Positions 1 to 53,588 of a stretch of DNA of 62,604 bases are shown here, piece by piece. The stretch comes from Candidatus Multiplicimicrobium inquinatum (GTDB lineage Bacteria; Omnitrophota; Omnitrophia; Omnitrophales; Aquincolibacteriaceae): contig DDUN01000034.1 in assembly GCA_002344825.1 (NCBI GenBank), positions 15,171-77,774 of the forward strand. The letters are read 5' to 3'. Made by a program: the position numbers and the translations under genes. Positions within the stretch are counted from its first letter, which is position 1. The number at the start of each line of letters is the position of its first letter. The notes beneath the pieces are model-generated. The model did no database searches and was not told the origin of the DNA. It saw nothing but the letters and a program-made list of their open reading frames with translations.

Positions 1-3000
1 CGCCGGACGAACTCAAAAATTGCCCCACATCAAACACTGCAACTGCAGCTGAAAGCTCAGCCTCTTCTTGTTTATCTAAAAATGAATCAAGAGCCTGAAG
101 CCTTCGCCCCCATTCAACCCACGCCTCATGTCTCTTTACATACGTCCAAATAGCTTCCGCCAAAATATCAACCATGCGGTCAACAATCTTTTCATTTATT
201 TTGTCTACCGTAAAACTGTGTCCCTGCTCTTGTCCGTAACTCTCAGCCAATGCCAGCATCTCTTCTTTGTCAGACTGGAGCAAAGCAAGGAGATCTGCAT
301 CATTTAAACCGATTTTTTCTTTCTCACGCAATTCTTGAGTATTAAACACACTACGTTCTCCATTTCCAATTTTATTGGGAATAAAACCATTCTGCTGAAT
401 AAGCTGTCTAAGCTCTGCTGCAACATTTGAAATTTCTTTTTTTACAATCTTGGCAGCCTCTGAAACATCATTGGCGGCGGCAAGAGCATTGAAAAAATCA
501 TAAGAAACTGGCTCGGTTTGAAGATACCCATTAGAGTCAAGAAAAACCCGCATTTCGGAACGAGCACGAAGCGCTTTTGAAAAACCATCAAACCACGATT
601 TAAAATTTGTATCCGTAAATGCACTATCAGACACCATGTTTGTCGGCGACACGTAAGAGCTTAAATCCGCTCTCACTTGAGCAGAAAACTCTACCGCTTT
701 ATCACTCCAAAGATCATGAAATAAATCCGCGGCAATTTGATGCGTATTGATTACCCCATTATCATTTGCAGTCGCCCATAAGGTGTATAAAAAGTAAACC
801 CGATGTTTAGCGCTATCTTCAAGATCAAATCTTGCCCCACCCAAATCAATCAAAATCATTTTTTTTCGATCTTTTTGCCAAATAAAATTTTGATACCGAA
901 TATCCGATGGGGGTTTAAAATCAAGATCTTTTCCAACCCCTAATACGGTCCTCAAGTACCCGCGATATTCATCTAATGTAAGCTCAGATTCTTCCAGAAC
1001 TTCAGAAAACTGAATTCCGTCGATAAACTCTTCTATCATCCAATGAAGCCCGTCTTGTGTTTGACCTTCTGATAAAATCATAGGGACATACTGATGGCTG
1101 ATTTTTTTTAAATCTGCCGTCTCTTCGCTGGGAATAGTCCCGGCTACCCTTTCAACCTTAAACATAAGTGAAAGCGATCTCCCTGATACACGGCCAAAAT
1201 CAATTCGAAAGCCATACTTACTCGTTCCGTCGTATCCATTAAAAATTCTAGCGGTTCCATTTAAATTTAAATCTAATTCCTCATATCCAAGCCGCCTGAA
1301 GAACTCTTTTACATTTTCTATATCCTGAAACCGTGGGGAGCGCAGAACATTCATCACTGACCGGGTCGTCGCTCCCGGAACTCCTCCGTCCAAAAATGAA
1401 AGCGTGTCAACTTCGTACCGCATTTCGGAGCGGCGCTGATCAAGTGAACTTCTTTCGGCATCCGGCCAAAGAAGCGGCCTGTTTTTCCCGGTAAAATTCA
1501 GCCTGAATTTTACCGGGTTGTCTTTGTCGCGCCGCAAAACTAAGTGAGAACGGGAAACCGAAGCGTCTTGGACAATTAAGTCATTGCTGCTGCCCCGTCC
1601 GATCAAAACTTCATTTTTATTTCGCGCGGCGGTAAACTTAGATTGTTGACCGGAAACTTGGACGATCACATCAAGTTCGCCGGCATAGCCTCCATTTCTG
1701 ATTCTCATGACGGAGTTGCTGTTTGAAAGCTGAAACAAAAACGGCAGTAAAGCAGGATCCCAAAGAATGCCTTTTTCGCCCGCGCTCTTTAAAGCGATCA
1801 TAAAAGCAAGGTTCAAATCGCGCACAAACTGATTTCGAAATGAATGGCCTTCCGCATCAAATTTTGGCTCCATCTCATACTCCTCGTTCGGATCACGACG
1901 GACGCCAAAAGCCTCAAAAGCAAGTTTCAGCACTTGCTCTTTAAGAGCGGTGGAAACACCGTACTGAACGGCGGCGGTTCTTCGCTCAAAAAAATCTAAA
2001 TTTTTGTTAAATTCAGACTCCGGGTTCGCATCATTTAAATTGAAGTAATCGTAATATTGGGGAAGATCGGCTAAAAACTCTGTGTTTTGCATGCCATATC
2101 CCAACAAACTATCAAGCATAGACTTCGCAAACCACTTACCCGCATCATATTCTTTGCGTGCACGCAAAACACTAAGCACAGCGTGAAAGCGCTCAACCGG
2201 AAATTCCCGCATGAAAAGGGGGTAATTGCTGAATGGCCCTGGAAAACCGGCCGCCGACCATTCCTCTGTCTTATTTTTAGTACCTTGGCTTAAATCCACC
2301 ACCCAGTCAGCAATTTCTTCGGGCGATTGATCCGCCACGCGCATTTCGGAGCGCCCCTTCGACCTGGCTACGATCACATACGGAGGTGTTTTTTGGCCGA
2401 CTCCAAAACCGGTTGTTCCGCCATCGACAAACATCGCTGATTCGATACTATTGCGGGAAAGCCAGGCGTGAAGCTCCGTCATAAATGAATCTGTGGACAT
2501 CCCCATTTTTCCCATAAAATCAGGTCCGTAAAACTCCTTGAAGAAAAATCTGCCTAAGCGGTCATATCCAATCGCAACGCGCCGCCCCCCCTGAAGCCCC
2601 TTATGCCAAACTTCAATTCCCAGGTTGAGATCTTCCCCGATTTTGATCCAAGGTCCGGCCTGAAATCCGATCGGGTACAACTGCACTCCATAAAGTTCAG
2701 GATTTTCAGCATATTTTTGGTAGTCAAAAATATGCGGCCTGCCGGTACCATCAATAAAAAACATCGCTTTAGCCATCGCTTTTTCCGAGAGGTTGTGATT
2801 AAAATCAACGATAGGTTCTTCTTCCTGAAGTCTCAAAAATCCGGTGGGCTGCTTATCTTCTAAAAAGAAATTTGCGGGTGAAATAATTTGAGCGTCGGAA
2901 TCATTTTGCGCGTCTTCAAAACGCATGACCTCAATATTCCAAGACCGAAGATCAAAAAAGAGATCTCCCGAAGATGTGGTTGACGCTAAATCGGGCGAAT

Positions 3001-6000
3001 TGATGCCGATATTGACTTGCTTGAGACCATAATTAGCTACAAGTCCACCCGTTCCAATGCCAGCCGCGAACAGCAAAGACCGACGGATAGCTTCCCGGCG
3101 AGTTAGCGGCTGAGCAACTCCACGTGCTTCAGAGCGCGCGGAAACAACCTCTTTTTCACTTCTTGGTTTTGGCGCAAAAGCCTCCCTGGGTAAAAATCCT
3201 TTAGCGAAAACTCGCCCCAAAGCGAATTCTTTTCCATACTTTATTTTTCCAAAAATAAGCATTGCGAAAAAAATCAAAATTGGAGCTTCAATAACCATCA
3301 CAAGTTCTGCTGTGGTTAATCTGCCAATGAGGATATTGGTTCCTATCCATTTATTAGCTAACTCAACCCCAACAACCGAATACGCGTACACGGATCCGGA
3401 TAAAGCCAAAGACATTGAAGATCTTCCGACAGCTGTTGTCATATTCGAATAGCTTGACGGAGTCTTTTTAAAATTGAATATTGCTGCACGGAAAAGTGCT
3501 CCTATCAAATAAAGCACCGCTCCGGCAAAGAAGACCTGCACAGGAAGCCCTCCGTCGGGCGCAATACGGGCAGCCCACTGCGCAAACGGTAAAGCAATTT
3601 CTCTTTGATACCAACTTAAATTAGCAGAAGGGACTTGGTTTTCAACTTGTGCTAATTCAGACGAGAAAACTTCAAGCGGAACCGTAGCAACCAACTCAGA
3701 CTCAACGGCCGACGGTGTCCGAGCAACCGCGGGTAAATCCTGACGCGCGACCGCAGGCTGATCAAGAGTCGGAAACAATAAACTTTCCTCAAGAAACCCT
3801 CTTTCAGAATCCCACTTAGGAAGAGCCAGAATTTCATCCACGCTCGCCACTCTCGAACTTGTATTAGCTTGAGGCTCAGAAACAGCGGTCGCGAGCACAA
3901 CATTCCAGCCCTGTCTCCCGCCGTAGCCGAAGGTGTGATCTTTGATCGCGTCCGCTATCTCTTGCTTTTTTGAAGCCGGGCTCGGTTTTGTCCGAAAATA
4001 TTTGTCATTGAAAACTCCATCCTCAAGGTTTTGTGCCATATCCCGAAGGGTATCTCCGTTTTTTGCCATTCTTGACTTTACACGCTTCTCTTTTACAAAA
4101 AAGAAAAATGCATCCAACTCATAATCATCCATAAGGTCAAGTTGCATCACTCGATAAGCTAGGGCTCGGGCAATATATTCCGCCTGAAGACCAGCATCGT
4201 TTGGAAACCTCTTGATCGCCGCCTCCCGTAACTCAACAATCGCTTTGTAAGAAGGCTGACTTTCCCCCTGCGATGTTAGCTCAAGTTTTTTAGCAAGAAA
4301 CTCCTGGTCAATTCGGCGGACATCTCCTTCTTTGGAGGGATATCCAAGCCAGGTCATCACATGATCTCCCAGGGTTCTGGAACGCGTTACTTCATGCTGA
4401 AAAATACCTTTGGCAATATCAATCGAAGGATGCCCGGCTTCCTTCCAATTCTTCTGATCGGCATACTGAAAAAGTCCCGACTCCATTCCGGTTTGAAATA
4501 GGGCAAGGTCGTGAAGGTCTTTCTTCTCTTGTTCGCTCGCGGAAGGGTAAATTTGATCGATCACACTCATAATCGAACCGGAAACAAGTTTCGCGTTTTC
4601 ACTAAAATTTCGGCTGCCTAAATTGGCTTCAACCTGCAAAGCCATTGCAGCCGTTTTGTCTTTTTGCTGTCCTTGCGCCAAAAAGTCTCCGACTGAAATG
4701 GCGTGCACTACCGTCATAACAAGAAAATAACCCAAAGCGAGTACGATATAAATCCAGGGCTTGATTTTTTCTTGAAGAATTTGCTCCGGTGTTCCGGGAA
4801 TTAAAACTTCAAGTCGAATTCCTTCTTTGACCCCAACCTTCTTCTCAGAATTTGAGGTTCCTGCGCCCCACCACTCCGTTAATGTTTGGACCGCCCCGAC
4901 CACAAGCGCAATCCCCGCAAGATAAACGCCGACAAGAGGGGCAAACTTTGCCAAAGCAATCATGATTACCGCGGCAATCGCCGCTTTCTTTAAAAAAGGA
5001 ATTACTCGCGCCTCGGAGCGGCTTGCTTCTAACGAGATAGTTTCATTCAGTTTCTGCTCAGGAGAAATCGCGCTTACATCCGCTTGCTTCTCTTCAATTC
5101 CAAGGCGCTGCAATAAAAATTGCGCTACCCATTGAAGTGTCGTTTGCGTGTTGGGATTTAAAGATGACGCCTTCAGACTTTTGATGTGGTTACGCGTAAA
5201 ATAAATCAACCCGCCGATAACACCTGCCGCAACGACCAAGGCTGTCAGATAAGGCGCAAAAGCAAACACCGCCGGTAGAATCAACCCCAAACCACCCACT
5301 GCTCCAAGCGCCCCAAGCAACACCGGGACGACATAAGCTTGTTCTGATGAGTCTCTCTCTATTTGAGGATTGAGCCGCAGCATGTCGCCGATAATTTCTC
5401 TTTTCAAACTATCACTGTACTCTGCTTCAAGACGGGCAAGCCCGATTGTAATTCGGCTGACCAACTCACCTTCAAATAAGTGCTTTCTTCCAAATGCTGT
5501 GGTAAGCGCCTCGGCATCCCCATATCGCTGCTCATTGACCGCAGTAATCATTTTCTGAATTTCTTCAAAAATAGAGTCAGGGTCAAAGTCCTCATCCCGT
5601 ATTTCAGAGCGCGCAGGAGTTAGTTCATACAGCCCCACTGCGTAATTTGTGGTTTTATATCCATCTGCTCTCTCAATCGTATAATTTTTTTCAGTATCCT
5701 CCCAAATCTCACCCATGCTCACTTCCGGAAGAATTAAAAATACCTTTCCATTTGGTTTCAAGTACTGAGAGGCTTCGCCAAGGAATCGGCGGAGCGTTTC
5801 AAATCCGGGGTCATTTTTTGCGAGAGCTAAGTTTCCGCCGGACGCTTCTGAATACCAAGGCGGATTCCAAAAAATAACATCAAACTTTTCTCCGTCGCGC
5901 ACGGCTGAAAAAAGATCGCTTTCACGCGCGTCAAACTCATCGCCAAGCGCCTCTTTTGCGGCTTGCACCGCGCTGGGGTTAATATCAAAACCGATAAATT

Positions 6001-9000
6001 GAATTTGTTGCGGATTGCGCACTGCGGACTGCAACTCTTTTGTTAACACCCCCGAACCAATCCCCATCTCCAACACCCGAATATTGTCATTCCCCTGTTT
6101 TCCGGCGGACTGCACTATTTGAGCAATCACTCCGCGGACCAGCCCAGTAATCTGATCACCCTTGTTGATCAAAACAGGGACGACTTGTCCCGCTTGTTGC
6201 GGTCGCATCTCAGAGCGCACATCAAACTTAGAAAATTTTTCGGCAAACCCGCGAGCCGCTATAATCGCTTTAATTTGGTCGTTACGCGGTTTATCGAAAG
6301 CTTTACTCAGTTCCGCAATCCGCCCTTGAGGAATAAGCCCTTTCATTTCCGCCCAATACTCTTCCGTCGCGCTTCCATAATCTTTCAGCTTGGCTGATGA
6401 GGCTGCTTTTAACTCTGCGGTTTGGAGTTTTTCGCCCACCAAATTTTCAAGATAAAGATAGTTTTTAACAAACCTCTCAGCTGGCAATAAATTCCAATCT
6501 TGCCGTAAAATTCTTTTTGCCGAACCTATATCAAGTTCCGCTGTTTCCTGTTGTGCCAGTTTCGAACTCGAGGCGGTTATCAGCGGAATATCGATCCTTA
6601 GAAAAGGTTGATCTTGTCCTTCGCTCAAGCGTAACGCCAACCGGCGCATAACCAGAGGCTGTCTCTGCCCCTTTATAACCCTTCTGAACCCCGACCGAGG
6701 CAATTCGACGTTAAAGAAATATTGAGGCCATAAGCGTACGAGCTCGTCTTCTACCATTTCCACAGGATTAATCGGAACGATGCTTTCGGGAACCGCCAAA
6801 ACCATGTCCAGGTCATTGATTAACCGTGTATCAATTTTTCCGTCGGCTTCGAGAGAAGCAGCAGAACCGTCGATAAAAATAACCGCCCCCGGCAAAACAG
6901 CCTGTACCGCTTGATCAACCGCAGCAAGCAAATTTTCCAAGTTAAGAATTCCGTCTTCGCTAATAACTTCTCCGGGTCGCGCTTCGGAACGAACCCGATC
7001 TGCTTCACTTCCAATTAACCCAGTAAACCATGCTGTGTTTTTTAGTTTTATAGAAAAAGCTGTAAAAATAGAAATGGTTGCGATAAATTCAATAATAATG
7101 GGTATTTTAGAAATAAGAGGATCACCAAGACCTATACCTAATAAAATAAACGAGTTTGTCAAGGAATGCATAGCCATCGGAGCAAGAAGATTTCCTGTCC
7201 GATGATAGAGATAAGCATAAGTGACCCCTGCGGAAAAAAGCTGTAAAAAAATATAGGCTGTAACAGCAATTCCACCCGCTCCAAATAAAACACCATGAAT
7301 AACAGCAAAGAGAAAAGCACTCGCACTTGCTGAAGCTAAAAATCCCATTCCTGAATCCATCATTTTCTTAAAAATTAACTTCCTAAACATTATTTCTTCA
7401 ATGATGGGCGCCAGAATAATCGAAGAAAGAATACTTGCTGTTGCTGCACTCAGCCCTAAAGCCCCCAACAAGGAAAGAGACACGGGAATCACAACGATAA
7501 GCATGAAAACTATGACGAGAGCTGGAGCAAAAACACGAATCTGCTCTCGGACAAATTGAAATTCTGTGTTTATTCTGTTTTTAAGAATCGACCCAATGTT
7601 ACTCCATGAAACAGCACCTTCCGCGGGCATTTCAGAGCGGCCCCCGAGCACCTCTTCGACAGACTCAGAACTTTGAGTCCCAGCGGAAGAGGTTAACTCT
7701 GTCCGAGCTTCGGAGCGGAAAGAAGCTGCCAGCGCCTTAAGTTCTTCTATTCCGCTAAAAATTTCTCGCGCTTCCCGAATCAACTCATTGTCTTCTCCAT
7801 CCGGAATACTCCAATTTTCTTTAAATTCACTCCATGTTTGATTTTGAGAAGCAACGGACAGCTCGAAAAAGAGCCGTTCTTTTAACTTTCCACGAAAAAA
7901 ATCCAGATCCGCAAGGATTTTCCGATTCTCAGGAGTGGCAAGTAATTTGAAGATGGCTCGTACTTGCACAGCTTCTTGATCTCCAACCGGGTCAGCTGCA
8001 TCCAGGCCCGCTTTCATTAGCGCCACTGTTTGCTCTTGTGGAGTTAAGCCATACCTGAAAATTGCCCGAAGGCCTCGCAAAGCCCGATTAAGGCTAACAG
8101 AGCCTGTCCCGCCCCATATAAGTCTTAAATTCGAAAGATCATCCAACGCATTTGAAATTATTTTGAAATCAGAGCTTGAGCCAACATCATCATCCAATTT
8201 AATTTGAAGATATTTTTGTCCGCCATTTTCTTTAACTTGAACATTTAAAAAAAGTTGATTGATTGTATAATTTTGCTGTGTCAATTCATCAAGCCACTCT
8301 ACCGGTGTAATTCGCGCGGCAAACGCGCTCAAAGCATCTGCCACATCATGCTCGCCCGGATTTTGTCGAACAACCAAGTCAAGATCGGACGCAATATCTT
8401 TAAGAGGACTTTCTTTTAAAGCCCCGCGCGCTGCTAGCAAAAAATAAATAGCAGCGCTTCCAAAAATAGTAATCGAAGTTCCGCTTTGTAGTTTTAATAA
8501 GCTTTCTTCAAGTTCTTGATCTAACCAAATTTTGATGCTTTCATTTCCAGAAGAATGTGCGATTTCATATTCTTGAACCCATGCAGGCGCTCGAAATTCG
8601 GAGCGAGATTTCAACAGCATATTTACGCTAATCGGATAAATCTCTCCTTTACTGATGGCATATTGAATCAGTTTGCTTCGTAAAGTTTTTTGAAAAACAA
8701 CCATTTCACGCAACTCGGACACAAATTGTTTAAGCACTCTATTTTCAAAAATAGTCACGCCAACAGCACCTTCATTGATCTCGCTTGAATTCACCCTGAC
8801 AATCAACCTGGCCACACTCTCTAAAAATTGTGTCTGCTCTGCGGCAACCTGTTCAGCGGCAGCAGCAGCTATGCTGACATTTGCCGTAGTGCCGGAGGCC
8901 TGATACTGAAGGTGCTTTCTCGGGAGTTTTACCCAAGTCATATTCTGAGGTGTTTTAAACTCAGTGAAGCCTGCTTGTTTTCCTATAAAAATATTCTTTA

Positions 9001-11902
9001 TAAAAATTTGAAAGCTCTTCCAAAGCATGACAAATATATTAAGATTAACCCACTCTCTCCATTGGCCCGCTATAGAGTCTGATAGAGTTGTTACGAATAT
9101 TTCAGGATCCGTAAAATTTACCGCGCTTTCATTTTGAGGCTGAATCGCGGCATACATTATCTTCGCCGCCGTTTCTGCTTCTCGCTCAGTTAGGGTATCA
9201 ATATCCATACCCAAATTTTGATAAATTTGGAGCAAAACAAATTCTCCCACATAATGGAAAAATCCATAATCTGCATCACGCGCCATTTCAATCATTTGAT
9301 TCACAAACGACGCGCCTAAAACCAAGTTCTTTTTTCCCGCAAAAACAACAAGCTCTTCAATAAGCTTTTTTTGATTTTCAGAATTTATCCGCAAATCATT
9401 AAGCTCTTGTATAGATAGGCCCTTTTCTCTGATAAAGCTTAAAAGTAATTCGCCTATTGCCGCATTCGCTCTGAATTTTCCTGAATTAAATTTAGACTGT
9501 TTTACTTTTACTACATTTTCAAAAGCAAGCGCATAAGCCTCCATGACACCCAGGTTCATTGTTTGCTTTGGTATGTCAAACCCATAGTAAGTATGAAGAG
9601 CATGCCCAAATTCATGCGCAAGTGATTGTGAGATTAAAGAGTCGCGACTGTTTTCACGATCAATTGTCATCCTGGAGCCCCGCATATATGAGCCTCCTCC
9701 ATCCATGAAACGCATATCTATTTCTTCCAAAATAGCGCGGTGCTCTTTATCAGGTATTAAAACTAAGCTCATAAGATATCGAAAAAGATCATGCGCCTGC
9801 CGTACAGCGACTTGATAACCGGGCTCATTTTTTTGGTTTTTTATTGCGTTATTAAAAGCCGCTATTGAGCCCTCCTGTGCTTCAGAACGAAATTTAATTT
9901 CAAATTTGCGGCCGTTATATAAAATTTCAAATTTTTGTCCGTTAAACAGCCCTTTGTTCAATTGCGCCGCAATTCGATTTCCGTCAAAATTCTTTCCCTT
10001 CAAAGCATCACGGATTGCATACTCAATTTGTTCGACAGAAAAACCGGCTTGATCTGGATTCAGCCCTGCTTGATTCAAGAGCGACCAAATTTCTACAGTT
10101 TGATTATCAACCGCCTGACGCTGCCCGCTAAAATTCGATTTTCCAAGCATGACATCTCGATAAAGGTTTGATTTCTCAACTTGCGTGAGCCGCGGAGTAA
10201 TCGTCCCGTAACTGATTTCTTTTTCGCGGAAGATCTCACGGAGACCTTCGGTGTGAAATCCGCCGGTCATTAAAATCGCTCGGTCGGTGGTCTCGAGCTC
10301 TTTCGCCATTTTTTCATAAAAAACTTCATCACGCCTAATCGCAAGATCGTAGAAAGAAAAGGCATTCTCAAAAGCGGTTAAAATTTGTTGCTGATAATCG
10401 CTATGACCGGAGCCCGAAACCCCAAGAGTGCGCAGCTCTTTAGTCCCCTCCGGTGTCTGGCCTTGGACCTCTTGGCTAAGCGATTTCACCCTTTGAAAAA
10501 GATCGGCGGGAGCCAATGCCTCTTTTCGTGAAATCACTTTTTGCCATTCCTCACGCGAAAGCTCAAGGTTGAGAAGTTTACGCACAAGTTCCGCATCTTG
10601 AAAAAGATTGATTAAATCTTTTTCGCGACCAGAGGCAGGAGCCCTGAGCCCCGAAGATCCTTCCTCTGCACTCCGGTCTCCGGCATCCGGGCTTGTTTCA
10701 AGCAATCTATCAAAAAGCTTTCTTATCTCCCCAAATAACGCGGTCGGTTCAATCTCATATTTCAAAATCAAATAGCCTGTGTAGAGTGCGAAGTTCGGAT
10801 AATTCGAAAACTTCAGCCCCTTCGGTCCCGCTTCTTCCACCAACTTCTCAACAAAAAATCGCGGCAAACTTTCCATCTTTCCCGAGCTCGCGCGGATGCG
10901 GTTCATGTTGATGCTCTTTTCATCAAACCTTTCCAAACCTTCGATCAGCTCTGATGAAACGCCATTCGCCTTGAGCCAGTCCAACATTTGTTTCTTTTCA
11001 ACTTCGGCAGCTTCATGAGCCCGGAGCCCAGAACCCCGAACCCCGAGAGTGCTCAGCTCTTTAGTCCCCTCCGGTCTCTGGCCTCCTGTCTTCGACCTAG
11101 ATTGTTGGTTCAATTTTTTTTCCATGTTCTGCAGAACCAACAATCTCGTCAGTTGCGGCCATTCGATCTGAGAATACAATCCCCGCAAATCAAGCTCTGC
11201 GCTTTCCTTCGCAAGCCTGGCTAAGCCCTCCACAAATGGAATAAATTCACGATGCCCTTTCTCAAATTTTTTCCACTCCGCAATAACTTTACGGGTTTCA
11301 GGCGGCAGAGTTTTGCTCGCTAATTTGTCTAATTCACTTTCAAGTCCGCTGACAAACTTCGCCGTCTCGGCTTCCCGGCTGTATACCGCTTTCAACGCTT
11401 CGTAGTTCTGACGATAAAGATCCGCGTTTTCAATACCCACTCCCCTCGCTCCGCCTTTCTCATCGCTTAGCAAAAACCAATCCGCGCCTGTGATTTGTCC
11501 GCGTTTCGCAAGCTCATCCCAAAGCTTCTTGTTTGTCTCTGCGTCAGAAAACAATTTTAAATAATCGGGGTTTAATTCTTCGGAAGCGCCTTCTACAAAA
11601 ATCGTCTTAAACCCATAGTTTTGATTGAGATAACTCATTAAATCGCGGATCTTGCTTTGTGCTTCGTAATTGGTGTGCGCGTTTTGAATCTGTAGAATCA
11701 TTTTCGGGTTGGGCCGCGCGGGTGCTTCCCAAAACTCCTCCACACTTGCAAGTTCAGCGGGGATATCGATTTGAATCAGTTTGGGTATTTCCGTTTTGGC
11801 TGAAAATTCAATACCCATTCCGGCAACATCCGCGAAGCAGGTGTTCACCGTAAACAAACTCAAAACCAAAACTGAAATTAGCTTTTTAAACCAAACGTTC
11901 AT
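1..11902 (-). CDS. Giant multidomain secreted/membrane protein A. The 5' end is complete and the 3' end runs off the window (at least 3,967 aa).
   Basis: Not in the ORF track. ATG at 11902..11900, with an in-frame stop upstream at 11924..11926. I read every plus-strand triplet starting at positions equal to 2 mod 3, from 11900 down to 2, and found no TTA, CTA or TCA. The N-terminus MNVWFKKLISVLVLSLFTVNTCFA looks like a signal peptide. Motifs seen, in N-to-C order: IQNAH (His codon 11675..11677) and GGFHT (His 10253..10255), both shared with giant B; HEFGH zinc-peptidase motif at 9602..9616; CPBP intramembrane protease motifs EExxxR at 7394..7399, FxxxH (His 7295..7297) and HxxxN (7154..7168); class I SAM methyltransferase motifs VLEMGIGSG at 6050..6076 and NPPW at 5855..5866; several TM blocks around 3200-5350; an internal Tat-like TRREAIRR plus hydrophobic stretch at 3035..3103; a NAGPA-like phosphodiester glycosidase pattern (RRVAIGYD...GMSTDSF..ELHAWL...AMFVDGGTTG) at about 2380..3020; an FHA signature (LIGRGSSNDLIVQDASVSRSHLVL) at about 1466..1708; and a kinase-like fold (EEFIDG hinge, SDIRYQN, IDLGGA) at about 620..1400. 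Confidence 0.85.
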   Translation of the reverse strand, partial: MNVWFKKLISVLVLSLFTVNTCFADVAGMGIEFSAKTEIPKLIQIDIPAELASVEEFWEAPARPNPKMILQIQNAHTNYEAQSKIRDLMSYLNQNYGFKTIFVEGASEELNPDYLKLFSDAETNKKLWDELAKRGQITGADWFLLSDEKGGARGVGIENADLYRQNYEALKAVYSREAETAKFVSGLESELDKLASKTLPPETRKVIAEWKKFEKGHREFIPFVEGLARLAKESAELDLRGLYSQIEWPQLTRLLVLQNMEKKLNQQSRSKTGGQRPEGTKELSTLGVRGSGLRAHEAAEVEKKQMLDWLKANGVSSELIEGLERFDEKSINMNRIRASSGKMESLPRFFVEKLVEEAGPKGLKFSNYPNFALYTGYLILKYEIEPTALFGEIRKLFDRLLETSPDAGDRSAEEGSSGLRAPASGREKDLINLFQDAELVRKLLNLELSREEWQKVISRKEALAPADLFQRVKSLSQEVQGQTPEGTKELRTLGVSGSGHSDYQQQILTAFENAFSFYDLAIRRDEVFYEKMAKELETTDRAILMTGGFHTEGLREIFREKEISYGTITPRLTQVEKSNLYRDVMLGKSNFSGQRQAVDNQTVEIWSLLNQAGLNPDQAGFSVEQIEYAIRDALKGKNFDGNRIAAQLNKGLFNGQKFEILYNGRKFEIKFRSEAQEGSIAAFNNAIKNQKNEPGYQVAVRQAHDLFRYLMSLVLIPDKEHRAILEEIDMRFMDGGGSYMRGSRMTIDRENSRDSLISQSLAHEFGHALHTYYGFDIPKQTMNLGVMEAYALAFENVVKVKQSKFNSGKFRANAAIGELLLSFIREKGLSIQELNDLRINSENQKKLIEELVVFAGKKNLVLGASFVNQMIEMARDADYGFFHYVGEFVLLQIYQNLGMDIDTLTEREAETAAKIMYAAIQPQNESAVNFTDPEIFVTTLSDSIAGQWREWVNLNIFVMLWKSFQIFIKNIFIGKQAGFTEFKTPQNMTWVKLPRKHLQYQASGTTANVSIAAAAAEQVAAEQTQFLESVARLIVRVNSSEINEGAVGVTIFENRVLKQFVSELREMVVFQKTLRSKLIQYAISKGEIYPISVNMLLKSRSEFRAPAWVQEYEIAHSSGNESIKIWLDQELEESLLKLQSGTSITIFGSAAIYFLLAARGALKESPLKDIASDLDLVVRQNPGEHDVADALSAFAARITPVEWLDELTQQNYTINQLFLNVQVKENGGQKYLQIKLDDDVGSSSDFKIISNALDDLSNLRLIWGGTGSVSLNRALRGLRAIFRYGLTPQEQTVALMKAGLDAADPVGDQEAVQVRAIFKLLATPENRKILADLDFFRGKLKERLFFELSVASQNQTWSEFKENWSIPDGEDNELIREAREIFSGIEELKALAASFRSEARTELTSSAGTQSSESVEEVLGGRSEMPAEGAVSWSNIGSILKNRINTEFQFVREQIRVFAPALVIVFMLIVVIPVSLSLLGALGLSAATASILSSIILAPIIEEIMFRKLIFKKMMDSGMGFLASASASAFLFAVIHGVLFGAGGIAVTAYIFLQLFSAGVTYAYLYHRTGNLLAPMAMHSLTNSFILLGIGLGDPLISKIPIIIEFIATISIFTAFSIKLKNTAWFTGLIGSEADRVRSEARPGEVISEDGILNLENLLAAVDQAVQAVLPGAVIFIDGSAASLEADGKIDTRLINDLDMVLAVPESIVPINPVEMVEDELVRLWPQYFFNVELPRSGFRRVIKGQRQPLVMRRLALRLSEGQDQPFLRIDIPLITASSSKLAQQETAELDIGSAKRILRQDWNLLPAERFVKNYLYLENLVGEKLQTAELKAASSAKLKDYGSATEEYWAEMKGLIPQGRIAELSKAFDKPRNDQIKAIIAARGFAEKFSKFDVRSEMRPQQAGQVVPVLINKGDQITGLVRGVIAQIVQSAGKQGNDNIRVLEMGIGSGVLTKELQSAVRNPQQIQFIGFDINPSAVQAAKEALGDEFDARESDLFSAVRDGEKFDVIFWNPPWYSEASGGNLALAKNDPGFETLRRFLGEASQYLKPNGKVFLILPEVSMGEIWEDTEKNYTIERADGYKTTNYAVGLYELTPARSEIRDEDFDPDSIFEEIQKMITAVNEQRYGDAEALTTAFGRKHLFEGELVSRITIGLARLEAEYSDSLKREIIGDMLRLNPQIERDSSEQAYVVPVLLGALGAVGGLGLILPAVFAFAPYLTALVVAAGVIGGLIYFTRNHIKSLKASSLNPNTQTTLQWVAQFLLQRLGIEEKQADVSAISPEQKLNETISLEASRSEARVIPFLKKAAIAAVIMIALAKFAPLVGVYLAGIALVVGAVQTLTEWWGAGTSNSEKKVGVKEGIRLEVLIPGTPEQILQEKIKPWIYIVLALGYFLVMTVVHAISVGDFLAQGQQKDKTAAMALQVEANLGSRNFSENAKLVSGSIMSVIDQIYPSASEQEKKDLHDLALFQTGMESGLFQYADQKNWKEAGHPSIDIAKGIFQHEVTRSRTLGDHVMTWLGYPSKEGDVRRIDQEFLAKKLELTSQGESQPSYKAIVELREAAIKRFPNDAGLQAEYIARALAYRVMQLDLMDDYELDAFFFFVKEKRVKSRMAKNGDTLRDMAQNLEDGVFNDKYFRTKPSPASKKQEIADAIKDHTFGYGGRQGWNVVLATAVSEPQANTSSRVASVDEILALPKWDSERGFLEESLLFPTLDQPAVARQDLPAVARTPSAVESELVATVPLEVFSSELAQVENQVPSANLSWYQREIALPFAQWAARIAPDGGLPVQVFFAGAVLYLIGALFRAAIFNFKKTPSSYSNMTTAVGRSSMSLALSGSVYAYSVVGVELANKWIGTNILIGRLTTAELVMVIEAPILIFFAMLIFGKIKYGKEFALGRVFAKGFLPREAFAPKPRSEKEVVSARSEARGVAQPLTRREAIRRSLLFAAGIGTGGLVANYGLKQVNIGINSPDLASTTSSGDLFFDLRSWNIEVMRFEDAQNDSDAQIISPANFFLEDKQPTGFLRLQEEEPIVDFNHNLSEKAMAKAMFFIDGTGRPHIFDYQKYAENPELYGVQLYPIGFQAGPWIKIGEDLNLGIEVWHKGLQGGRRVAIGYDRLGRFFFKEFYGPDFMGKMGMSTDSFMTELHAWLSRNSIESAMFVDGGTTGFGVGQKTPPYVIVARSKGRSEMRVADQSPEEIADWVVDLSQGTKNKTEEWSAAGFPGPFSNYPLFMREFPVERFHAVLSVLRARKEYDAGKWFAKSMLDSLLGYGMQNTEFLADLPQYYDYFNLNDANPESEFNKNLDFFERRTAAVQYGVSTALKEQVLKLAFEAFGVRRDPNEEYEMEPKFDAEGHSFRNQFVRDLNLAFMIALKSAGEKGILWDPALLPFLFQLSNSNSVMRIRNGGYAGELDVIVQVSGQQSKFTAARNKNEVLIGRGSSNDLIVQDASVSRSHLVLRRDKDNPVKFRLNFTGKNRPLLWPDAERSSLDQRRSEMRYEVDTLSFLDGGVPGATTRSVMNVLRSPRFQDIENVKEFFRRLGYEELDLNLNGTARIFNGYDGTSKYGFRIDFGRVSGRSLSLMFKVERVAGTIPSEETADLKKISHQYVPMILSEGQTQDGLHWMIEEFIDGIQFSEVLEESELTLDEYRGYLRTVLGVGKDLDFKPPSDIRYQNFIWQKDRKKMILIDLGGARFDLEDSAKHRVYFLYTLWATANDNGVINTHQIAADLFHDLWSDKAVEFSAQVRADLSSYVSPTNMVSDSAFTDTNFKSWFDGFSKALRARSEMRVFLDSNGYLQTEPVSYDFFNALAAANDVSEAAKIVKKEISNVAAELRQLIQQNGFIPNKIGNGERSVFNTQELREKEKIGLNDADLLALLQSDKEEMLALAESYGQEQGHSFTVDKINEKIVDRMVDILAEAIWTYVKRHEAWVEWGRRLQALDSFLDKQEEAELSAAVAVFDVGQFLSSSG

Positions 11903-12167
11903 TATCTTTTTTGTGCCAACACACTATATATGCGGTTAACTAAGTTTCTCTTTCTTAAAAAAATATAACCAATGGAATTATTAAAATAAATTAAAAATGC
12001 TAAAATGATAGTTTTTGATAGTTAATGCTATATATAAATCACGCTTTTGACCAAATCCAATCCCTCCCTTGAGCTTACCTACTCTTGACCCCCAATTTAC
12101 ATGTTTTGCCAAGACAGAGGCCGATACATGAGGCGAGAATGCCGCACTTAAAAAAAGGAGGATTCCT

Positions 12168-12281
12168 ATGGGTTTAAATTGGCTGCTCGGGTTAGCCGCG
12201 TGGTTTGTCGATATGGAAATGAAGAGAACGGAAAATGGTTCAAGTCTGATGGATCAAATCTTTGAACTGACTGAAATCTAA
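12168..12281 (+). CDS. Small hypothetical protein (37 aa)
   Basis: AAGGAGG Shine-Dalgarno about 7 nt upstream of the ATG. Product MGLNWLLGLAAWFVDMEMKRTENGSSLMDQIFELTEI. Too short for the track's 60-aa cutoff. I recognised no homology. Confidence 0.3.
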   Translation: MGLNWLLGLAAWFVDMEMKRTENGSSLMDQIFELTEI

Positions 12282-12296
12282 AACAAAGAGGTCTTT

Positions 12297-12428
12297 ATGA
12301 TCGACTTCAAGTGGCTGAATGATTTGATTTTGCTCGGCGGGGCAACCCAGCTTTCTCTGCCGGCCAAAACATTATGCTGTATGGATCCTGAAACGGAAGA
12401 AGACGGCGAAGAGGAAACGATTATTTAA
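12297..12428 (+). CDS. Small hypothetical acidic-tailed protein (43 aa)
   Basis: AAAGAGG precedes the ATG at 12297. Product MIDFKWLNDLILLGGATQLSLPAKTLCCMDPETEEDGEEETII. It lies in tandem with the previous small ORF, and its stop abuts the stop of the convergent gene at 12429. Confidence 0.3.
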   Translation: MIDFKWLNDLILLGGATQLSLPAKTLCCMDPETEEDGEEETII

Positions 12429-13271
12429 TTAACGTTTCTTGAAATGGCGGACCGGCTTTTTCTTGGGAGGCGGCGTCCATTTTCGGCGTAACGTATTTTT
12501 AGGCTCTTGTGTATAAGGAATGAAAGTTCGCAGTTTATTTACGCATGCCTGAAGCTCCTCTGACAACGGAGCTTCTATTTTAAGAGGCGCTCCCGTTACC
12601 GGATGCTCAAAGGCAAGACTGGAAGCATGCAAAAAAAGTCTTCGCAGTCCCATCAATTTCTGCAAAGTTCGATTCCACTTAAAATCACCGTACAAACGAT
12701 CCCCCGCCACGGGATGTCCGTGGCTCGCGCATTGAATACGGATTTGATGAAACTTTCCGGTCACAAGCTTCACTGCCAGCAAGGTCATGCGTGAGCTTTC
12801 ATAATACTCCTGAACGTTGTAGCTCATAATGGCATTCGGGGACTGGTTTTTTTTGATTCCTGCGCGGCGCATGCGATTCATACGGCGTGTCTCAACATGA
12901 TCAAGCCATTTTCCGGTCGGAGGCGAAACACGTCCGCCGCCCACAAGCACCTGGTAGATTTTCTGCAAAGCATGCTTTTCAAAAATCAAACGCAGTTTGG
13001 TCGCCACAGCCGCGGATTTCGCCGCGAGCAAAACACCGGAAGCTTCCTGATCAAGGCGATGCAGCAGCCAAATCGTTCCTTTGGGCGTCTCAAAAGTACG
13101 CTGCTCGAAATCATAATGTCCGAGAAAAGCGGCACGGCCTTCTTGCCCTTCAAGCCGTTTCTTTTCATTAACCGGATTGGGGTGCGAAAGAATGCCGGAT
13201 GGCTTATTGATCAGCAAAAGATGCGCGTCTTCGAAGATAATCGGAAACTCGGTATAGACGGGTTGATTCAT
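12429..13271 (-). CDS. RluA-family 23S rRNA/tRNA pseudouridine synthase
   Basis: 280-aa ORF carrying the catalytic HRLDQEASGVLL motif and KFHQIRIQ, both typical of the RluA family. Confidence 0.9.
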   Translation of the reverse strand: MNQPVYTEFPIIFEDAHLLLINKPSGILSHPNPVNEKKRLEGQEGRAAFLGHYDFEQRTFETPKGTIWLLHRLDQEASGVLLAAKSAAVATKLRLIFEKHALQKIYQVLVGGGRVSPPTGKWLDHVETRRMNRMRRAGIKKNQSPNAIMSYNVQEYYESSRMTLLAVKLVTGKFHQIRIQCASHGHPVAGDRLYGDFKWNRTLQKLMGLRRLFLHASSLAFEHPVTGAPLKIEAPLSEELQACVNKLRTFIPYTQEPKNTLRRKWTPPPKKKPVRHFKKR

Positions 13272-13418
13272 GGAAGCATTGTACTCTAAGCCAACAGTCG
13301 TTCAAAACGGTTTGGATGCAATGAACAAACGAGTGGCTGAGGAGGCGTAGTGAAACCTACGCCGCACGAATGCCACGAAGTTTGTGAAGCCGCAGACAAG
13401 CCGTTTTCAACGACCTGT

Positions 13419-15245
13419 TTACTTCTTCTCGTTACGCTTGCGTTCGTTTTCGTCCAAGTAACGTTTACGCAGACGAATGTTTTTCGGCGTAATTTCCACC
13501 AACTCATCGTCGGCAATAAATTCGAGCGCGAAATCCAAAGTCATTTCGCGGGGCGGAACCAACTGAATCGCTTCATCGGCACCGGAAGAACGCATGTTGG
13601 TTAATTTCTTTTCGCGGTTGGCATTTACGACAAGGTCATTGCCTTTATTGTTTACGCCCACGATCATGCCGGTATACATATCCTCACCGACATGGATAAA
13701 AATTTCGCCGCGTTCCTGCAAGCCCCAAAGACCGTAAGCAACGGCTTTGGCGTTGTTCTGGGAAATCAGAACCGCAACCTGACGATTTTCGATTTCGCCG
13801 CGGAAAGGTTCATAGTCGTGAAAGATCTGGTTGAGTACCGCGGTACCGCGGGTCAACTGCAGCAATTCGCTGCGCAGACCGATCAAAGCGCGCGAAGGAA
13901 TCAAATATTCGAGACGCACGGTTCCGACCGCGCTGTTAATCATGGCTTTCAAGTCGGCTTTACGGCCGCCGAGACGCTCAATGACGGTGCCCTGAAATTC
14001 AGGATCAACTTCAATTACCAACTCTTCGATCGGCTCCATTTTTACGCCATCCACATCTTTAAAAATAACCTGCGGGCGCGAAACTTCAAGCTCATAACCT
14101 TCACGGCGCATCATTTCAATCAAGATGGCCAAATGCAATTCACCGCGTCCGGAAACTTTGAAGCGATCTTCATTCGGAACCGGCTCCACTTTGATACCGA
14201 CGTTCACTTTCGCTTCATGCTCAAGGCGTTCACGAATGTGGCGTGAAGTTAAAAACTTACCGCCGTCTTTACCGGCCAAGGGGCTGGTGTTGTGCGAGAA
14301 AAACATCGAGATCGTCGGCTCATCGATATGAATCGCGGGCAAAGCTTCAGGCTTATCCGGGGAAGTCAATGTATCCGCAACGCGCACATCTCCAGCGCCC
14401 GCGATATGAACGATATCACCCGCCAAAGCTTCCTGAACTTCAACCTTAGGGAGACCTTTGTGCTTCAAAATTTTTGTAACTTTGCCGCGCTCAACCGTGC
14501 CATCCGCGCGCTTCACAAGCATAATCGGATCGCCCACTTTAATTTTACCCGTGGCTACGCGGCCGATCGCAACGTGTCCGACATAAGGGTCATAAGCAAG
14601 CATCGTCACGAGCATTTGAAACGGGGCTTCAACATCCGCAACCGGCGGAAGAACACGGTGCATAATCGTTTCAAGCAAAGGCGTAATATCTTTCGACTCA
14701 TCTTCCAAATTCATTTTCGCCCAGCCTTCTTTGCCTGAAGCGTAAACGATCGGAAAATCAAGCTGTTCGGGAGTCGCGTTCAATTCGCAGAAAAGGTCAA
14801 ACGCCATATTTTCAACTTCTTTGGGACGCGCGTTCGGACGATCCACTTTATTCACCACAAGAATCGGTTTCAAGTGAAGCTCAAGTGATTTACGCAACAC
14901 AAATTTGGTTTGTGGCATCGGACCATCAAGTGCGTCGACGAGCAAAAGCACGCCGTCAACCATACGCAAAATACGTTCAACTTCGGAACCGAAGTCGGCG
15001 TGACCGGGAGTATCCACAATGTTAAAAGTAATTCCCTTGTACACCAAGGACGCGTTTTTAGAAAAAATGGTAATACCGCGCTCACGCTCGAGCGGGTTAA
15101 AGTCCATCACGGTATCTTCGCCTTCTTTGAAAGCATAAGCATTACCCGCTTTAAGCAAAGCATCCACCAGAGTCGTTTTACCGTGGTCAACGTGAGCCAC
15201 AATTGCGAAATTACGTACGTCTTGTCTTCTTTTTTGAATCGTCAT
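13419..15245 (-). CDS. typA: Translational GTPase TypA/BipA
   Basis: 608-aa ORF with G1 AHVDHGKTT, DTPGHADF and NKVDR motifs, and an EF-G-like C-terminal architecture. Confidence 0.97.
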   Translation of the reverse strand: MTIQKRRQDVRNFAIVAHVDHGKTTLVDALLKAGNAYAFKEGEDTVMDFNPLERERGITIFSKNASLVYKGITFNIVDTPGHADFGSEVERILRMVDGVLLLVDALDGPMPQTKFVLRKSLELHLKPILVVNKVDRPNARPKEVENMAFDLFCELNATPEQLDFPIVYASGKEGWAKMNLEDESKDITPLLETIMHRVLPPVADVEAPFQMLVTMLAYDPYVGHVAIGRVATGKIKVGDPIMLVKRADGTVERGKVTKILKHKGLPKVEVQEALAGDIVHIAGAGDVRVADTLTSPDKPEALPAIHIDEPTISMFFSHNTSPLAGKDGGKFLTSRHIRERLEHEAKVNVGIKVEPVPNEDRFKVSGRGELHLAILIEMMRREGYELEVSRPQVIFKDVDGVKMEPIEELVIEVDPEFQGTVIERLGGRKADLKAMINSAVGTVRLEYLIPSRALIGLRSELLQLTRGTAVLNQIFHDYEPFRGEIENRQVAVLISQNNAKAVAYGLWGLQERGEIFIHVGEDMYTGMIVGVNNKGNDLVVNANREKKLTNMRSSGADEAIQLVPPREMTLDFALEFIADDELVEITPKNIRLRKRYLDENERKRNEKK

Positions 15246-15572
15246 CTGTTCCTTTTAGCTCTGAGCCTTCCGGCTCAACCGCGAGCATAGAAGTCCTTTT
15301 ATTCTTCTGATTATAAAAATACTAATCCAATTCCGTCTGCTTGAAAGGGCGACTTGAAGAGGAGTTCGAAGCCGCGGATTATATCAGACAACCGCCCATA
15401 GGCAAACGACAATACACGCTTAATGATATTTTTTTAATAAAACAAAAATGTTAGTTTTTGCGTCTTGGAACCAACCTCACCACTGCTACGCTTTAATTAG
15501 GAAGCATTCGCTCTTTCGTTCGAGGGGGCGGAAACCCGTGCTTTGAGGGTTTCAAACTGAAAGGATGAGGCC

Positions 15573-15749
15573 ATGAAAACGAATCTCGATACGACACATC
15601 GTCTGATTCGGCTGGTCTTGGGGGTAGCTCTGGTAGTTGCCGAGTATCAATTGAAAGTCCATATCGGACTTTTCTATTTCGGCATTTTACTGGCATTAAC
15701 GGGGATTTTTGGTTTTTGCCCGCTTAAAGCGCTCTTTAAGAAGAGCTAA
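15573..15749 (+). CDS. DUF2892 (YgaP-like) small membrane protein, 58 aa
   Basis: Unlisted because it is shorter than 60 aa. AAAGGA lies upstream of the ATG. Product MKTNLDTTHRLIRLVLGVALVVAEYQLKVHIGLFYFGILLALTGIFGFCPLKALFKKS, with the characteristic G-F-C-P-L motif. Confidence 0.6.
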   Translation: MKTNLDTTHRLIRLVLGVALVVAEYQLKVHIGLFYFGILLALTGIFGFCPLKALFKKS

Positions 15750-15766
15750 GCATCAGACTCAAAATG

Positions 15767-15799
15767 GGGGCAGAGCATTCGCGCTCTGCCCCTATTTTC
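15767..15799. terminator. Intergenic hairpin, possibly a bidirectional terminator
   Basis: Stem GGGGCAGAGC (15767..15776) pairs with GCTCTGCCCC (15783..15792), leaving a 6-nt loop, with A/T-rich flanks. It sits between the convergent genes ending at 15749 (+) and 15803 (-). Confidence 0.5.
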
Positions 15800-15802
15800 A
15801 TT

Positions 15803-27013: not shown

Positions 27014-27532
27014 AAAGCCCCCCCAGGCTATAACTTCAGACGCGGTTAAATAAACTGCGCCGGATTTTTCATCACAGACTGAATATCCTGACTTGTTGCT
27101 CCGAACCGGCATGCCAACCCCAAAGCGTCTCTTGCTTGTTCGTAGCGTTCGTCCAGCAAGCACTTCCCAAACTGTTGAAGAGCCGTTGTTTTTAAAAAAG
27201 ATTTGAGTCCTAAAATCCGGTGAGAATGTTTCATCTTCATTAAGCACCTCCTTAGCTACAAACTTTTTAAAACAATTTACTTCCTGTTTAATAATAAGCA
27301 TAGACCATGCCAACTTTTAAAATTTCTATAAGTTGTTTTATAGTAATAATTTAAGATAAATAACAAAAATGGAATGGCACAAAAACTACAAGTATCCTTG
27401 GCTAAAATTTTCATTTTTGATGAAAAGAAGGAATGCAGGCAGGAGGTTAAAACCAAGAAATGCTAGAAAAAGATAGAAAGTGCTTTGCGGATTATGAATT
27501 CAATTTTGTGATGAGAACACGGAACAGGGCAA

Positions 27533-37670: not shown

Positions 37671-37894
37671 TTTCCTAGCGACAGACTAAAGACCAAAGAC
37701 TGAAGACTACAGACTGACGACAACCGCAAACCCGGCACTTTTGGAAATGTTCCGAACTCTGCTAACGTCTCCCCGTGGACGGCGTCCGGTTTTCCGCAAG
37801 CTGCTTTACCACTCCACTGGTCAATTTTCACGTGACGAATACCTTTTGGTAGTCCGTCAGCTAAAAAGATTGTTATTTTTTTACCGTTACTCAT
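37667..37894 (-). pseudogene. Probable remnant of a GIY-YIG/DUF4357-type nuclease gene (N-terminal fragment only)
   Basis: The first 33 or so aa (MSNGKKITIFLADGLPKGIRHVKIDQWSGKAA) match, from memory, the conserved N-terminus of restriction-associated GIY-YIG/DUF4357 proteins. The rest is unrelated low-complexity sequence, and the ORF overlaps the convergent OMP gene by 4 nt. Confidence 0.35.
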
Positions 37895-39916: not shown

Positions 39917-39930
39917 ATACTTGAACAGCC

Positions 39931-51682: not shown

Positions 51683-51758
51683 GCCAAATGGTACTGGTTT
51701 CAATCGCTTAAAGTCAATCACACTCGAAAAAACAGAAAACACCCGATCAACAAAAAAA

Positions 51759-53480: not shown

Positions 53481-53588
53481 GCTGATTTCCTTATTAAATC
53501 CGCAAACGAGTGTGGCGAAGCTTGTCAAATTATATGGATCGAGCCGAATGGCGCTATCAAAATCTTATGAAATATCTGCGGCAATTTA

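Follow-up and report, generated by a model that had tools for sequence, protein, structure and literature searches.

The first 11.9 kb of a 62,604-nucleotide (nt) stretch of the Candidatus Multiplicimicrobium inquinatum genome (phylum Omnitrophota; contig DDUN01000034.1, positions 15,171 to 77,774), hereafter referred to as the window, raise the question of what kind of gene lies there, and whether its product acts as a single chain. An earlier note, made from the sequence alone, had claimed that one minus-strand open reading frame (ORF), missing from the supplied ORF list, occupies this whole interval and encodes a mosaic of enzyme domains unlike any described protein family. We call this gene giant A. 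As described below, its modules begin with a recurring pentapeptide, RSExR (where x is any residue), which is specific to a large protein family of Omnitrophota. The explanation that we favour, and to which we give an even chance of being right, is that giant A is a junction-delimited polyprotein or an array of cassettes.

Reverse-complement translation of the window gave the reading frame that the earlier note had described. On the minus strand (window 2..11902), 3,967 codons run without a stop from an ATG at 11902, and the first in-frame stop met on its 5′ side lies at 11924..11926 (the translation preceding the initiator methionine reads ...S-stop-PHI-stop-CVGTKKI). For random codons, the probability that a run of 3,967 is free of stops is about (61/64)^3967, or roughly e^-190. 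The ORF had been left off the list, as the earlier note supposed, because the frame runs off the end of the window, and ORFs that run off the source sequence go unlisted. Using the neighbouring pseudouridine synthase gene (window 12429..13271), we found the locus in other assemblies. The full giant A gene is called as 6,451 amino acids (aa) in GCA_035436425.1 (DAOMWF010000010.1), JGI 3300013502 and ENA ERZ761609, and the same locus is present in JGI 3300006417, where the gene is ended by the contig edge. Each of the four matches the window at 100% identity over at least 2429..15841, free of mismatches and gaps. This identity covers about 9.5 kb of giant A (2429..11902), the fetched loci ending short of 2..2428, and is evidence against a frameshift or chimera within the covered part. 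Positions 2..2428 fall within the called 6,451-aa gene, and aa 3184-3486, which are encoded there, have a 90%-identical homologue in another protein. The 6,451-aa calls and the identical assemblies together indicate that the window holds the first 61% of a real 19.4-kb gene. Giant A is a genuine Omnitrophota gene.

Besides this gene length, the earlier note had overlooked the junction motif. In giant A, RSE[AMFI]R occurs at aa 1100, 1396, 1638, 1896, 2098, 2295, 2923, 3184, 3491 and 3781. These 10 copies of RSExR compare with 0.07 expected, and the maximum in 5,000 shuffles was 3. Giant B, a second member of the same family in the window, has 3 copies, and the other window ORFs of at least 100 aa have none. 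Similarly, the relaxed pattern R[SAT][ED]xR is observed 723 times in 158 family proteins, where 46 occurrences are expected. The motif is a compact pentapeptide with unconserved flanks and a median spacing of 243 aa, usually preceded by a small residue at position -1. At the start of family modules it takes the form R-[S/A]-E-[V/A/L/M]-R, V, A, L and M being the commonest residues at position 4. When 79 Omnitrophota loci and the window are taken together, family ORFs carry 1.8 motifs per 1,000 aa, and other ORFs, from which unrecognised family ORFs were excluded, about 0.04. Every Pfam-defined domain of giant A falls wholly inside one motif-bounded segment, and in the relative P0029 a motif stands immediately after the last WD40 blade. 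The motif is thus family-specific and located at module boundaries.

We considered that the motif could be an internal translation start or a Shine-Dalgarno sequence, since its position 4 codon is often GTG or ATG, and its 3′ half is GAGGTGAGG-like in some lineages. However, position 4 is also often Ala, Ser or Thr, Met is not enriched downstream, and the motifs of giant A are not Shine-Dalgarno-like, so we rejected this idea. A search for stand-alone module genes with the motif at their N-terminus gave none that was convincing.

The family to which giant A belongs was delimited by its N-terminal domain (N-domain). An exhaustive search with aa 1-1200 of giant A retrieved 6,343 representative proteins at E<=1e-3, of which 614 reach E<=1e-30; the matches are nearly all confined to aa ~5-590, and the best have E-values of 1e-287 to 1e-120. 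These relatives range from about 250 to 7,498 aa in length. A scan of GTDB genomes with the N-domain alignment gave 389 relatives, and among the best 80 of these every named record is Candidatus Omnitrophota or Omnitrophica, the remainder being labelled 'uncultured bacterium'. Two matches in the protein database are also named Candidatus Omnitrophica, and several genomes carry at least three N-domain paralogues each. The earlier note's claim of a module shared with giant B is borne out by an alignment of aa 47-578 of giant A with aa 167-598 of giant B (22.7% identity, E 3e-17). Judged by these sequence searches, the family of giant A is large, uncurated and restricted to Omnitrophota, and its members are built on one fixed architecture.

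This architecture emerges from the comparison of short and long family members. Proteins of about 1,000 aa consist of the N-domain and a C-terminal domain, usually without the motif. In longer members the first motif lies at a median of aa 667 and the last one a median of 314 aa before the C-terminus, and the number of motifs grows with protein length (2.7 per 1,000 aa, Spearman 0.73). The protein ends in -SA or -AA in 114 of 157 cases. The positions of the motifs and the conservation of the ends therefore give a common plan: a signal peptide, the N-domain, a variable number of units that each consist of RSExR and a module, a final RSExR, and a C-terminal domain of about 310 aa ending in -SA or -AA. 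The giants are the same two-end frame as the minimal members, with inserted cargo. This pair of bookend domains and the RSExR junction appear to be undescribed in the literature that our search covered; a literature search for the pentapeptide strings returned only noise.

The cargo itself is highly variable. Most modules of giant A have no detectable relative among about 430 family ORFs, and one family member of 4,733 aa has no Pfam match at all. The NAGPA-like module of giant A recurs in seven proteins, at differing positions. The relatives P0002 and P0003 begin with the same N-terminus as giant A, and the FHA module of giant A is 90% identical to aa 2091-2393 of P0002, while the remaining cargo differs; the match extends from the motif to 5 residues short of the next one. 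More generally, cargo is almost fully replaced between relatives that share 72-79% identity in their matched N-terminal stretches, and the breakpoints coincide with motifs. Modules thus behave as cassettes, and the cargo of close relatives changes exactly at the motifs.

Two further observations concern the family loci. About 15-21 of the loci L007-L085 hold one orthologue group in conserved synteny, downstream of housekeeping-like genes; in the representative sequences that we read, the neighbours resemble thrS, infC, rplT, pheS, pheT, an AAA ATPase and a UvrD-like helicase. This synteny suggests that the core genome of Omnitrophota includes one or more old family members that were inherited vertically. 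In addition, five loci (L024, L033, L042, L074 and L078) contain same-strand ORFs with 3-7 copies of RSExR and no recognisable N-domain or C-terminus. In L042, and possibly in others, such a motif-rich ORF continues 3′ of the family gene, and these ORFs may derive from giants that a stop, a frameshift or a mistake in assembly has broken up.

If the motifs were junctions at which a precursor is divided, the sequences that follow them might resemble the starts of independent proteins. In 15.2% of cases, the 40 aa that follow the motif contain a hydrophobic stretch resembling a signal or transmembrane (TM) segment, compared with 5.7% before the motif and 6.2% at control positions. Furthermore, 6 of 685 motifs and none of 2,398 controls are followed by a signal of the twin-arginine (Tat) type that has a hydrophobic core. 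These cases include the canonical SRRDFLK and TRRTFLQ, as well as the junction at aa 2923 of giant A. Module starts that often look like protein N-termini would fit processing, and they are also compatible with fossilised gene fusions.

The segments of giant A, and other features of the window, are listed in Table 1. Most of the domains that the earlier note had read by eye were recovered by profile searches or by a hydrophobicity scan. The signal peptide is present, and the CPBP protease is confirmed by Pfam (PF02517, E 8.5e-16, 58.5 bits against a cutoff of 22.4), with its EExxxR, FxxxH and HxxxN motifs intact (IIEEIMFR, FLFAVIH and MHSLTN). A variant of the junction motif, RSEMP, occurs inside this module (nt 7625-7639, aa 1422). 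The class I methyltransferase, which had been recognised by the strings VLEMGIGSG and NPPW, scores above the cutoffs of several Pfam families (Methyltransf_31, 33.8 bits against 27), and contains both the GxGxG motif for S-adenosylmethionine (SAM) binding and NPPW. NCBIfam models of the HemK type also match it, with E about 5e-17, and their scores of at most 62 bits lie below the equivalog cutoffs of 87-243; judged by these profiles, the module is a HemK/PrmC relative and not an equivalog. The FHA domain matches PF00498 when its module is scanned alone (28.9 bits against a cutoff of 20.7); the phosphothreonine-binding residues are present in IGRG, SRSH and GKN, and the Pfam alignment spans only the first half of the profile. 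The internal Tat-like signal with its RR pair was found at aa 2935 (to 2965) as TRREAIRRSLLFAAGIGTGG. The TM blocks correspond to hydrophobic stretches at aa ~1461-1618, 2191-2225, 2300-2404 and 2790-2885, and those of the module at aa 2295-2922 resolve into helices at aa ~2300-2326, 2386-2404, 2790-2808 and 2867-2885. The soluble part of that module had looked like a lytic transglycosylase ('ES ... GxFQ'), an assignment that we rejected, as Pfam supports it neither in giant A nor in three look-alike modules.

Three of the domain claims held only in part. The NAGPA-like phosphodiester glycosidase is supported by homologous modules that match PF09992, whereas the module of giant A itself gives no match. 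Seven homologues of this module are in the family set, and all six that were scanned match PF09992, three at 25.0-25.3 bits (cutoff 25, E 2e-5) and three at 13.9-18.9 bits. The kinase-like module is matched by five PADLOC PD-T4-6 models at aa 3587-3698 (E 5.7e-5 to 4e-3) and weakly by the NCBIfam MAD6 kinase (E 0.002), but not by Pfam. It contains DIRYQN and IDLGG, 14 residues apart, which correspond to D-x4-N and DLG motifs; an AlphaFold2 model from the single sequence was unusable (pLDDT 37.8). Finally, the HEFGH motif claimed for a metallopeptidase is present but lies outside any significant profile match. It is kept in the sole homologous module that we found, in P0095, which is likewise without a profile match. 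A further module, at aa 1100-1395, could be nucleotidyltransferase-like according to a G-S...D-x-D pattern, a lead that is not confirmed.

Table 1. Features of giant A and of the rest of the window, with positions in the window.
Feature	Position	Strand	Content or basis
Giant A, first 3,967 codons (61%) of 6,451	2..11902	-	stop about 7.45 kb past the left window edge
Sec-type signal peptide, aa 1-24 (MNVWFKKLISVLVLSLFTVNTCFA, then DV)	11831..11902	-	hydrophobicity scan
N-terminal bookend domain, family-defining, aa ~28-600	10103..11821	-	conservation among homologues; no Pfam, NCBIfam or PDB sequence match
57-nt direct repeat, copies 1 and 2	10407..10463 and 11028..11084	-	88% identity; nowhere else in the window
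Module aa 601-1099, with HEFGH (aa 763-767, nt 9602-9616)	8606..10102	-	putative zincin, motif only
Module aa 1100-1395, RSEFR start (nt 8591-8605)	7718..8605	-	G-S...D-x-D pattern
Module aa 1396-1637, RSEAR start (nt 7703-7717)	6992..7717	-	CPBP/Rce1-like intramembrane protease, Pfam nt 7151-7441
Module aa 1638-1895, RSEAR start (nt 6977-6991)	6218..6991	-	no functional assignment
Module aa 1896-2097, RSEMR start (nt 6203-6217)	5612..6217	-	class I SAM methyltransferase, HemK/PrmC-like, Pfam nt 5657-6133
Module aa 2098-2294, RSEIR start (nt 5597-5611)	5021..5611	-	soluble part, then TM hairpin aa 2191-2225
Module aa 2295-2922, RSEAR start (nt 5006-5020)	3137..5020	-	TM helices around a soluble region
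Module aa 2923-3183, RSEAR start (nt 3122-3136)	2354..3136	-	Tat-like signal aa 2935-2965, then NAGPA-like domain
Module aa 3184-3490, RSEMR start (nt 2339-2353)	1433..2353	-	C-terminal FHA domain, Pfam nt 1511-1621
Module aa 3491-3780, RSEMR start (nt 1418-1432)	563..1432	-	protein-kinase-like, PADLOC PD-T4-6 nt 809-1144
Module aa 3781-3967+, RSEMR start (nt 548-562)	2..562	-	incomplete at window edge
Giant B, ~3,050 aa, complete family paralogue	18161..27313	-	N-domain, RSExR at aa 770, 2836, 2875, end ...VTQTSA
D12-class N6-adenine methyltransferase	37891-39060	-	part of possible defence islet
288-aa ORF overlapping the D12-class gene	39050-39916	-	no Pfam match
DndB-like protein	39931-40896	-	part of possible defence islet

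For the whole 6,451 aa, the precomputed Pfam matches are Rce1-like, methyltransferases and PP2C only, and the PP2C phosphatase sits further downstream, beyond the window. Towards the window edge, a protein homologue search with aa 3300-3967 found no match, and aa ~3368-3967 retrieved no related loci from genome contigs or metagenome contigs.

The N-domain, which defines the family, has the conserved elements H71-IQ-x-x-H76, Y96, FVE104G, G135 and G139, and GGFHT in its second half. An AlphaFold2 model of a minimal relative of 1,000 aa is confident for this domain and contains an alpha/beta core interrupted by a long helical insert. This pattern of His...His...Glu...GGFH and the split alpha/beta core with a helical insert bring to mind the hydrolases of the Tiki/TraB/ChaN/erythromycin-esterase type, a resemblance that we regard as a lead only. 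A Foldseek search of the PDB with the 1,000-aa core model gave nothing at E<=0.001, and the erythromycin esterase EreC (6xcs) appears only at rank 32 (E 1.4). Searches of PDB sequences gave a chance-level match to WrbA with the N-domain profile, and only weak methyltransferase matches with the whole protein as query. Each copy of the 57-nt repeat forms an in-frame insertion of about 20-30 aa (PEGTKEL.TLGV.GSG) in a loop of the N-domain, which is absent from the close relatives P0001 and P0002. Other family members have different low-complexity insertions in the same loops, some of which resemble translated palindromic repeat elements, such as 'SVIPAKAGIQ' in P0018.

How might such a protein work? 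We infer from sequence patterns a cleavage at the motif, and with it a topology and a biological role for giant A. In the polyprotein reading, RSExR would be a processing junction, and the precursor would be divided there into proteins of the size of a module. The chief argument for such proteolysis is that module starts often resemble protein N-termini. The TM or Sec/Tat-like stretch that follows about one in seven motifs within 40 aa could then target the released module, and the released products might, in the most speculative of these steps, have as their target the cell envelope, a host cell or a prey cell. More tentatively, we extend this proposal to the family as a whole: Omnitrophota may carry chromosomal polyproteins with a conserved end frame around up to dozens of in-frame cassettes for unrelated enzymes, regulators and membrane proteins, in which RSExR would serve as the cleavage point and its conserved coding sequence possibly also as the junction for swapping modules in frame between paralogues. 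If this is true, one gene would do the work of an operon, with released modules sorted by their own Tat, Sec or TM signals.

Several points weigh against processing. No protease could be assigned to it, the N-domain being without a significant structural or sequence match. The CPBP and HExxH modules are cargo and not universal, and therefore neither is the general processing enzyme of the family. Among the loci examined, there is no conserved neighbouring gene for a protease or a secretion component. One unprocessed multi-pass protein would be equally compatible with the Sec signal at the N-terminus and with the many TM helices, and that giant A ends in the C-terminal bookend of about 310 aa is deduced from its relatives and from giant B. 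Lastly, a pure peptide cleavage site does not predict the bias at synonymous sites and the local hairpin potential that are described below.

The alternative that survives these data best, although we consider it rather unlikely, is that the product stays a single uncut giant multi-pass membrane protein. The motif would then be a structural linker or cap between modules, or a docking site for a chaperone, a kinase/FHA partner or an insertion factor, and the internal signals would be ordinary TM or re-entrant segments. One threaded polypeptide would agree with the signal peptide and the 10 or more hydrophobic segments of giant A, the family has yielded no universal protease, and published topology work treats Omnitrophota giants as proteins with a signal peptide and TM helices (bioRxiv 10.64898/2026.06.07.730766). 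However, canonical twin-arginine signals located right after motifs would be hard to use within an uncut chain. A single topology is also awkward for a protein whose methyltransferase, kinase, FHA and PP2C domains need a cytoplasmic-type milieu, while a Tat-targeted NAGPA-like domain would be exported. Furthermore, recognition sites, more typically than structural linkers, consist of a five-residue motif that is independent of its flanks.

A different explanation for the motif is suggested by its nucleotide sequence. In the ten motifs of giant A, the first Arg is always encoded by CGY and the Ser by TCY, compared with 36% and 35% gene-wide. Across 274 motifs from the 79 loci, the first Arg is CGY in 85% (background 42%) and the Ser is TCN in 92% (background 66%). 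Wobble bases are C-rich in the 5′ half of the motif and G-rich in the 3′ half, and 322 instances give the coding consensus (g)CC CGC TCC GAR nTG MGG, of about 17 nt. In predicted folds, windows of 27 nt around the motif gain 1.5 kcal/mol in stability over their synonymous recodings (n=291, p 2.5e-14), and control windows show no such gain. The motif could therefore be mainly a nucleic-acid junction between cassettes, in which a sequence able to form a mini-hairpin would offer microhomology or a recognition site for in-frame exchange, insertion and loss of modules among paralogues, and the pentapeptide would be a by-product of the conserved nucleotide sequence. The near-complete turnover of cargo with breakpoints at the motifs, and the presence of several paralogues per genome, agree with such a function. 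On the other hand, the nucleotide pattern is strictly sense and in frame (209 instances in frame 0, 5 in the other frames and 5 antisense), from which peptide-level selection appears to be primary and any constraint on DNA or RNA secondary. Codons also vary, with every Arg and Ser codon family occurring among the instances, and position 4 is limited by residue type (V/A/L/M) and not by sequence. In addition, 15-17 degenerate bases are short for homologous recombination, and no recombinase is linked to the loci examined. As the main explanation of the motif, we thus consider a nucleic-acid junction improbable; it is, however, compatible with the polyprotein reading and does not exclude it. A remaining reading, in which the long ORF results from mis-assembly, joins several genes as a chimera or is a decaying pseudogene free of stops by chance, is very improbable and close to refuted. 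The sequence does stem from metagenome assemblies, and its base-by-base cross-check covers window 2429..11902. However, four independent assemblies agree exactly over 9.5 kb of the ORF, the gene is called as 6,451 aa in three of them, significant domain matches are distributed along giant A, hundreds of homologues have the same architecture, and the chance-ORF probability is the vanishing one given above.

As a short, family-specific motif that marks module boundaries, RSExR supplies candidate cut sites that can be tested, and a rule for splitting giants into units for structure prediction and annotation. The bookend domains similarly provide a handle for cataloguing a family of thousands of proteins that is absent from current domain libraries. 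If processing is confirmed, the polyprotein reading would make this a rare bacterial case of polyprotein gene organisation, and the signature at synonymous sites hints at a mechanism for in-frame shuffling of cassettes.

Elsewhere in the window, a third giant ORF (53589..62210, minus strand, 2,873 aa) contains at least 16 GLUG repeats (PF07581, E 3.9e-175) and no RSExR, and is unrelated to giants A and B. The region 37891..40896 on the minus strand is a possible islet of DNA modification or defence genes (Table 1). ARAGORN called a 94-nt tRNA-Pyl (anticodon CTA) at 51511-51604 on the minus strand, in the overlap of the ORFs 50498-51988 and 51759-53528; this call is probably a false positive, because neither a tRNA nor any other Rfam family is detected in the window. 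Nearly all long ORFs over the 62 kb are on the minus strand, and the plus strand contains 16,185 C and 12,852 G, a strong strand bias.

Omnitrophota, like other ultra-small symbiotic or predatory bacteria, are marked by giant genes, and whether the products of these genes act as one chain or are cut is openly debated. ORFs of more than 20 kb with few annotated domains occur in most Omnitrophota classes (Seymour et al. 2023, PMC10066038). Archaeovorin- and dockerin-type giants of more than 30 kilo-amino acids (kaa), with TM helices, SecA_DEAD and C39/S8 peptidase domains, have been described by West-Roberts et al. 2023 (bioRxiv 10.1101/2023.11.21.568195), who asked whether giants are cleaved, and for whom the absence of known cleavage points blocked a module-wise analysis. 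A class of 'multi-enzyme metabolic cluster' proteins of at least 10 kaa was defined by Nielsen & Lui 2026 (bioRxiv 10.64898/2026.06.07.730766), with a pipeline that downgrades internal signal-peptide calls. None of these three papers mentions the junction motif, a polyprotein model or the shared pair of bookends.

Giant A resembles these published giants in its phylum, its long single ORF, its signal peptide and many TM helices, and in being a mosaic of unrelated enzymes (methyltransferases, peptidases, kinases) that is mostly unannotatable and poorly conserved between relatives. The earlier note's statement that the mosaic is unlike any described family therefore needs to be narrowed: Pfam and NCBIfam contain no model for the family domains, but giant mosaic ORFs as such are known in Omnitrophota. 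With 6.45 kaa, giant A falls under the published thresholds of 10-30 kaa. It shares with Archaeovorins the many TM helices and the mosaic of methyltransferase, peptidase and glycosyl enzymes; Pfam and NCBIfam gave no match to SecA_DEAD or C39/S8 peptidase in aa 1-3967 at E<=0.1. Because it is shorter than the cut-offs and lacks SecA_DEAD and C39 matches in this part, we do not file giant A as an Archaeovorin. Its distinct single-copy Pfam domains, signal peptide and TM helices would fit the multi-enzyme metabolic cluster, whose cut of 10 kaa it does not reach. The giant A family is thus related to the published Omnitrophota giants, but distinct from them and uncurated. The setting of its CPBP domain also differs: CPBP (PF02517) is normally a stand-alone membrane protein of about 250 aa, whereas in giant A it is one embedded cargo module.

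In design, the closest parallels lie outside the phylum. The MARTX toxins of Vibrio and its relatives have an array of effector modules that differs from strain to strain, between N- and C-terminal regions that are conserved; the modules are exchanged as cassettes and freed by proteolysis at short sites between them. The giant A family similarly has two conserved ends around a variable array of modules, which is an analogy and not a homology. No RTX A/B/C repeats and no cysteine protease domain (Peptidase_C80) were matched in aa 1-3967 by Pfam or NCBIfam; giant A has a Sec signal and internal TM helices where MARTX toxins have features of type I secretion, and its junction is a fixed pentapeptide where theirs are Leu-X sites. 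A second parallel is provided by the surface polyproteins RgpA, Kgp and HagA of Porphyromonas gingivalis and by viral polyproteins, in which a long precursor is cut at short, repeated basic sites, giving catalytic and accessory parts. No gingipain (C25) or viral protease domain was found in aa 1-3967 of giant A. If giant A is cut at RSExR, as we infer, it would share its design with these Arg/Lys-processed polyproteins, although its modules are far more numerous and diverse.

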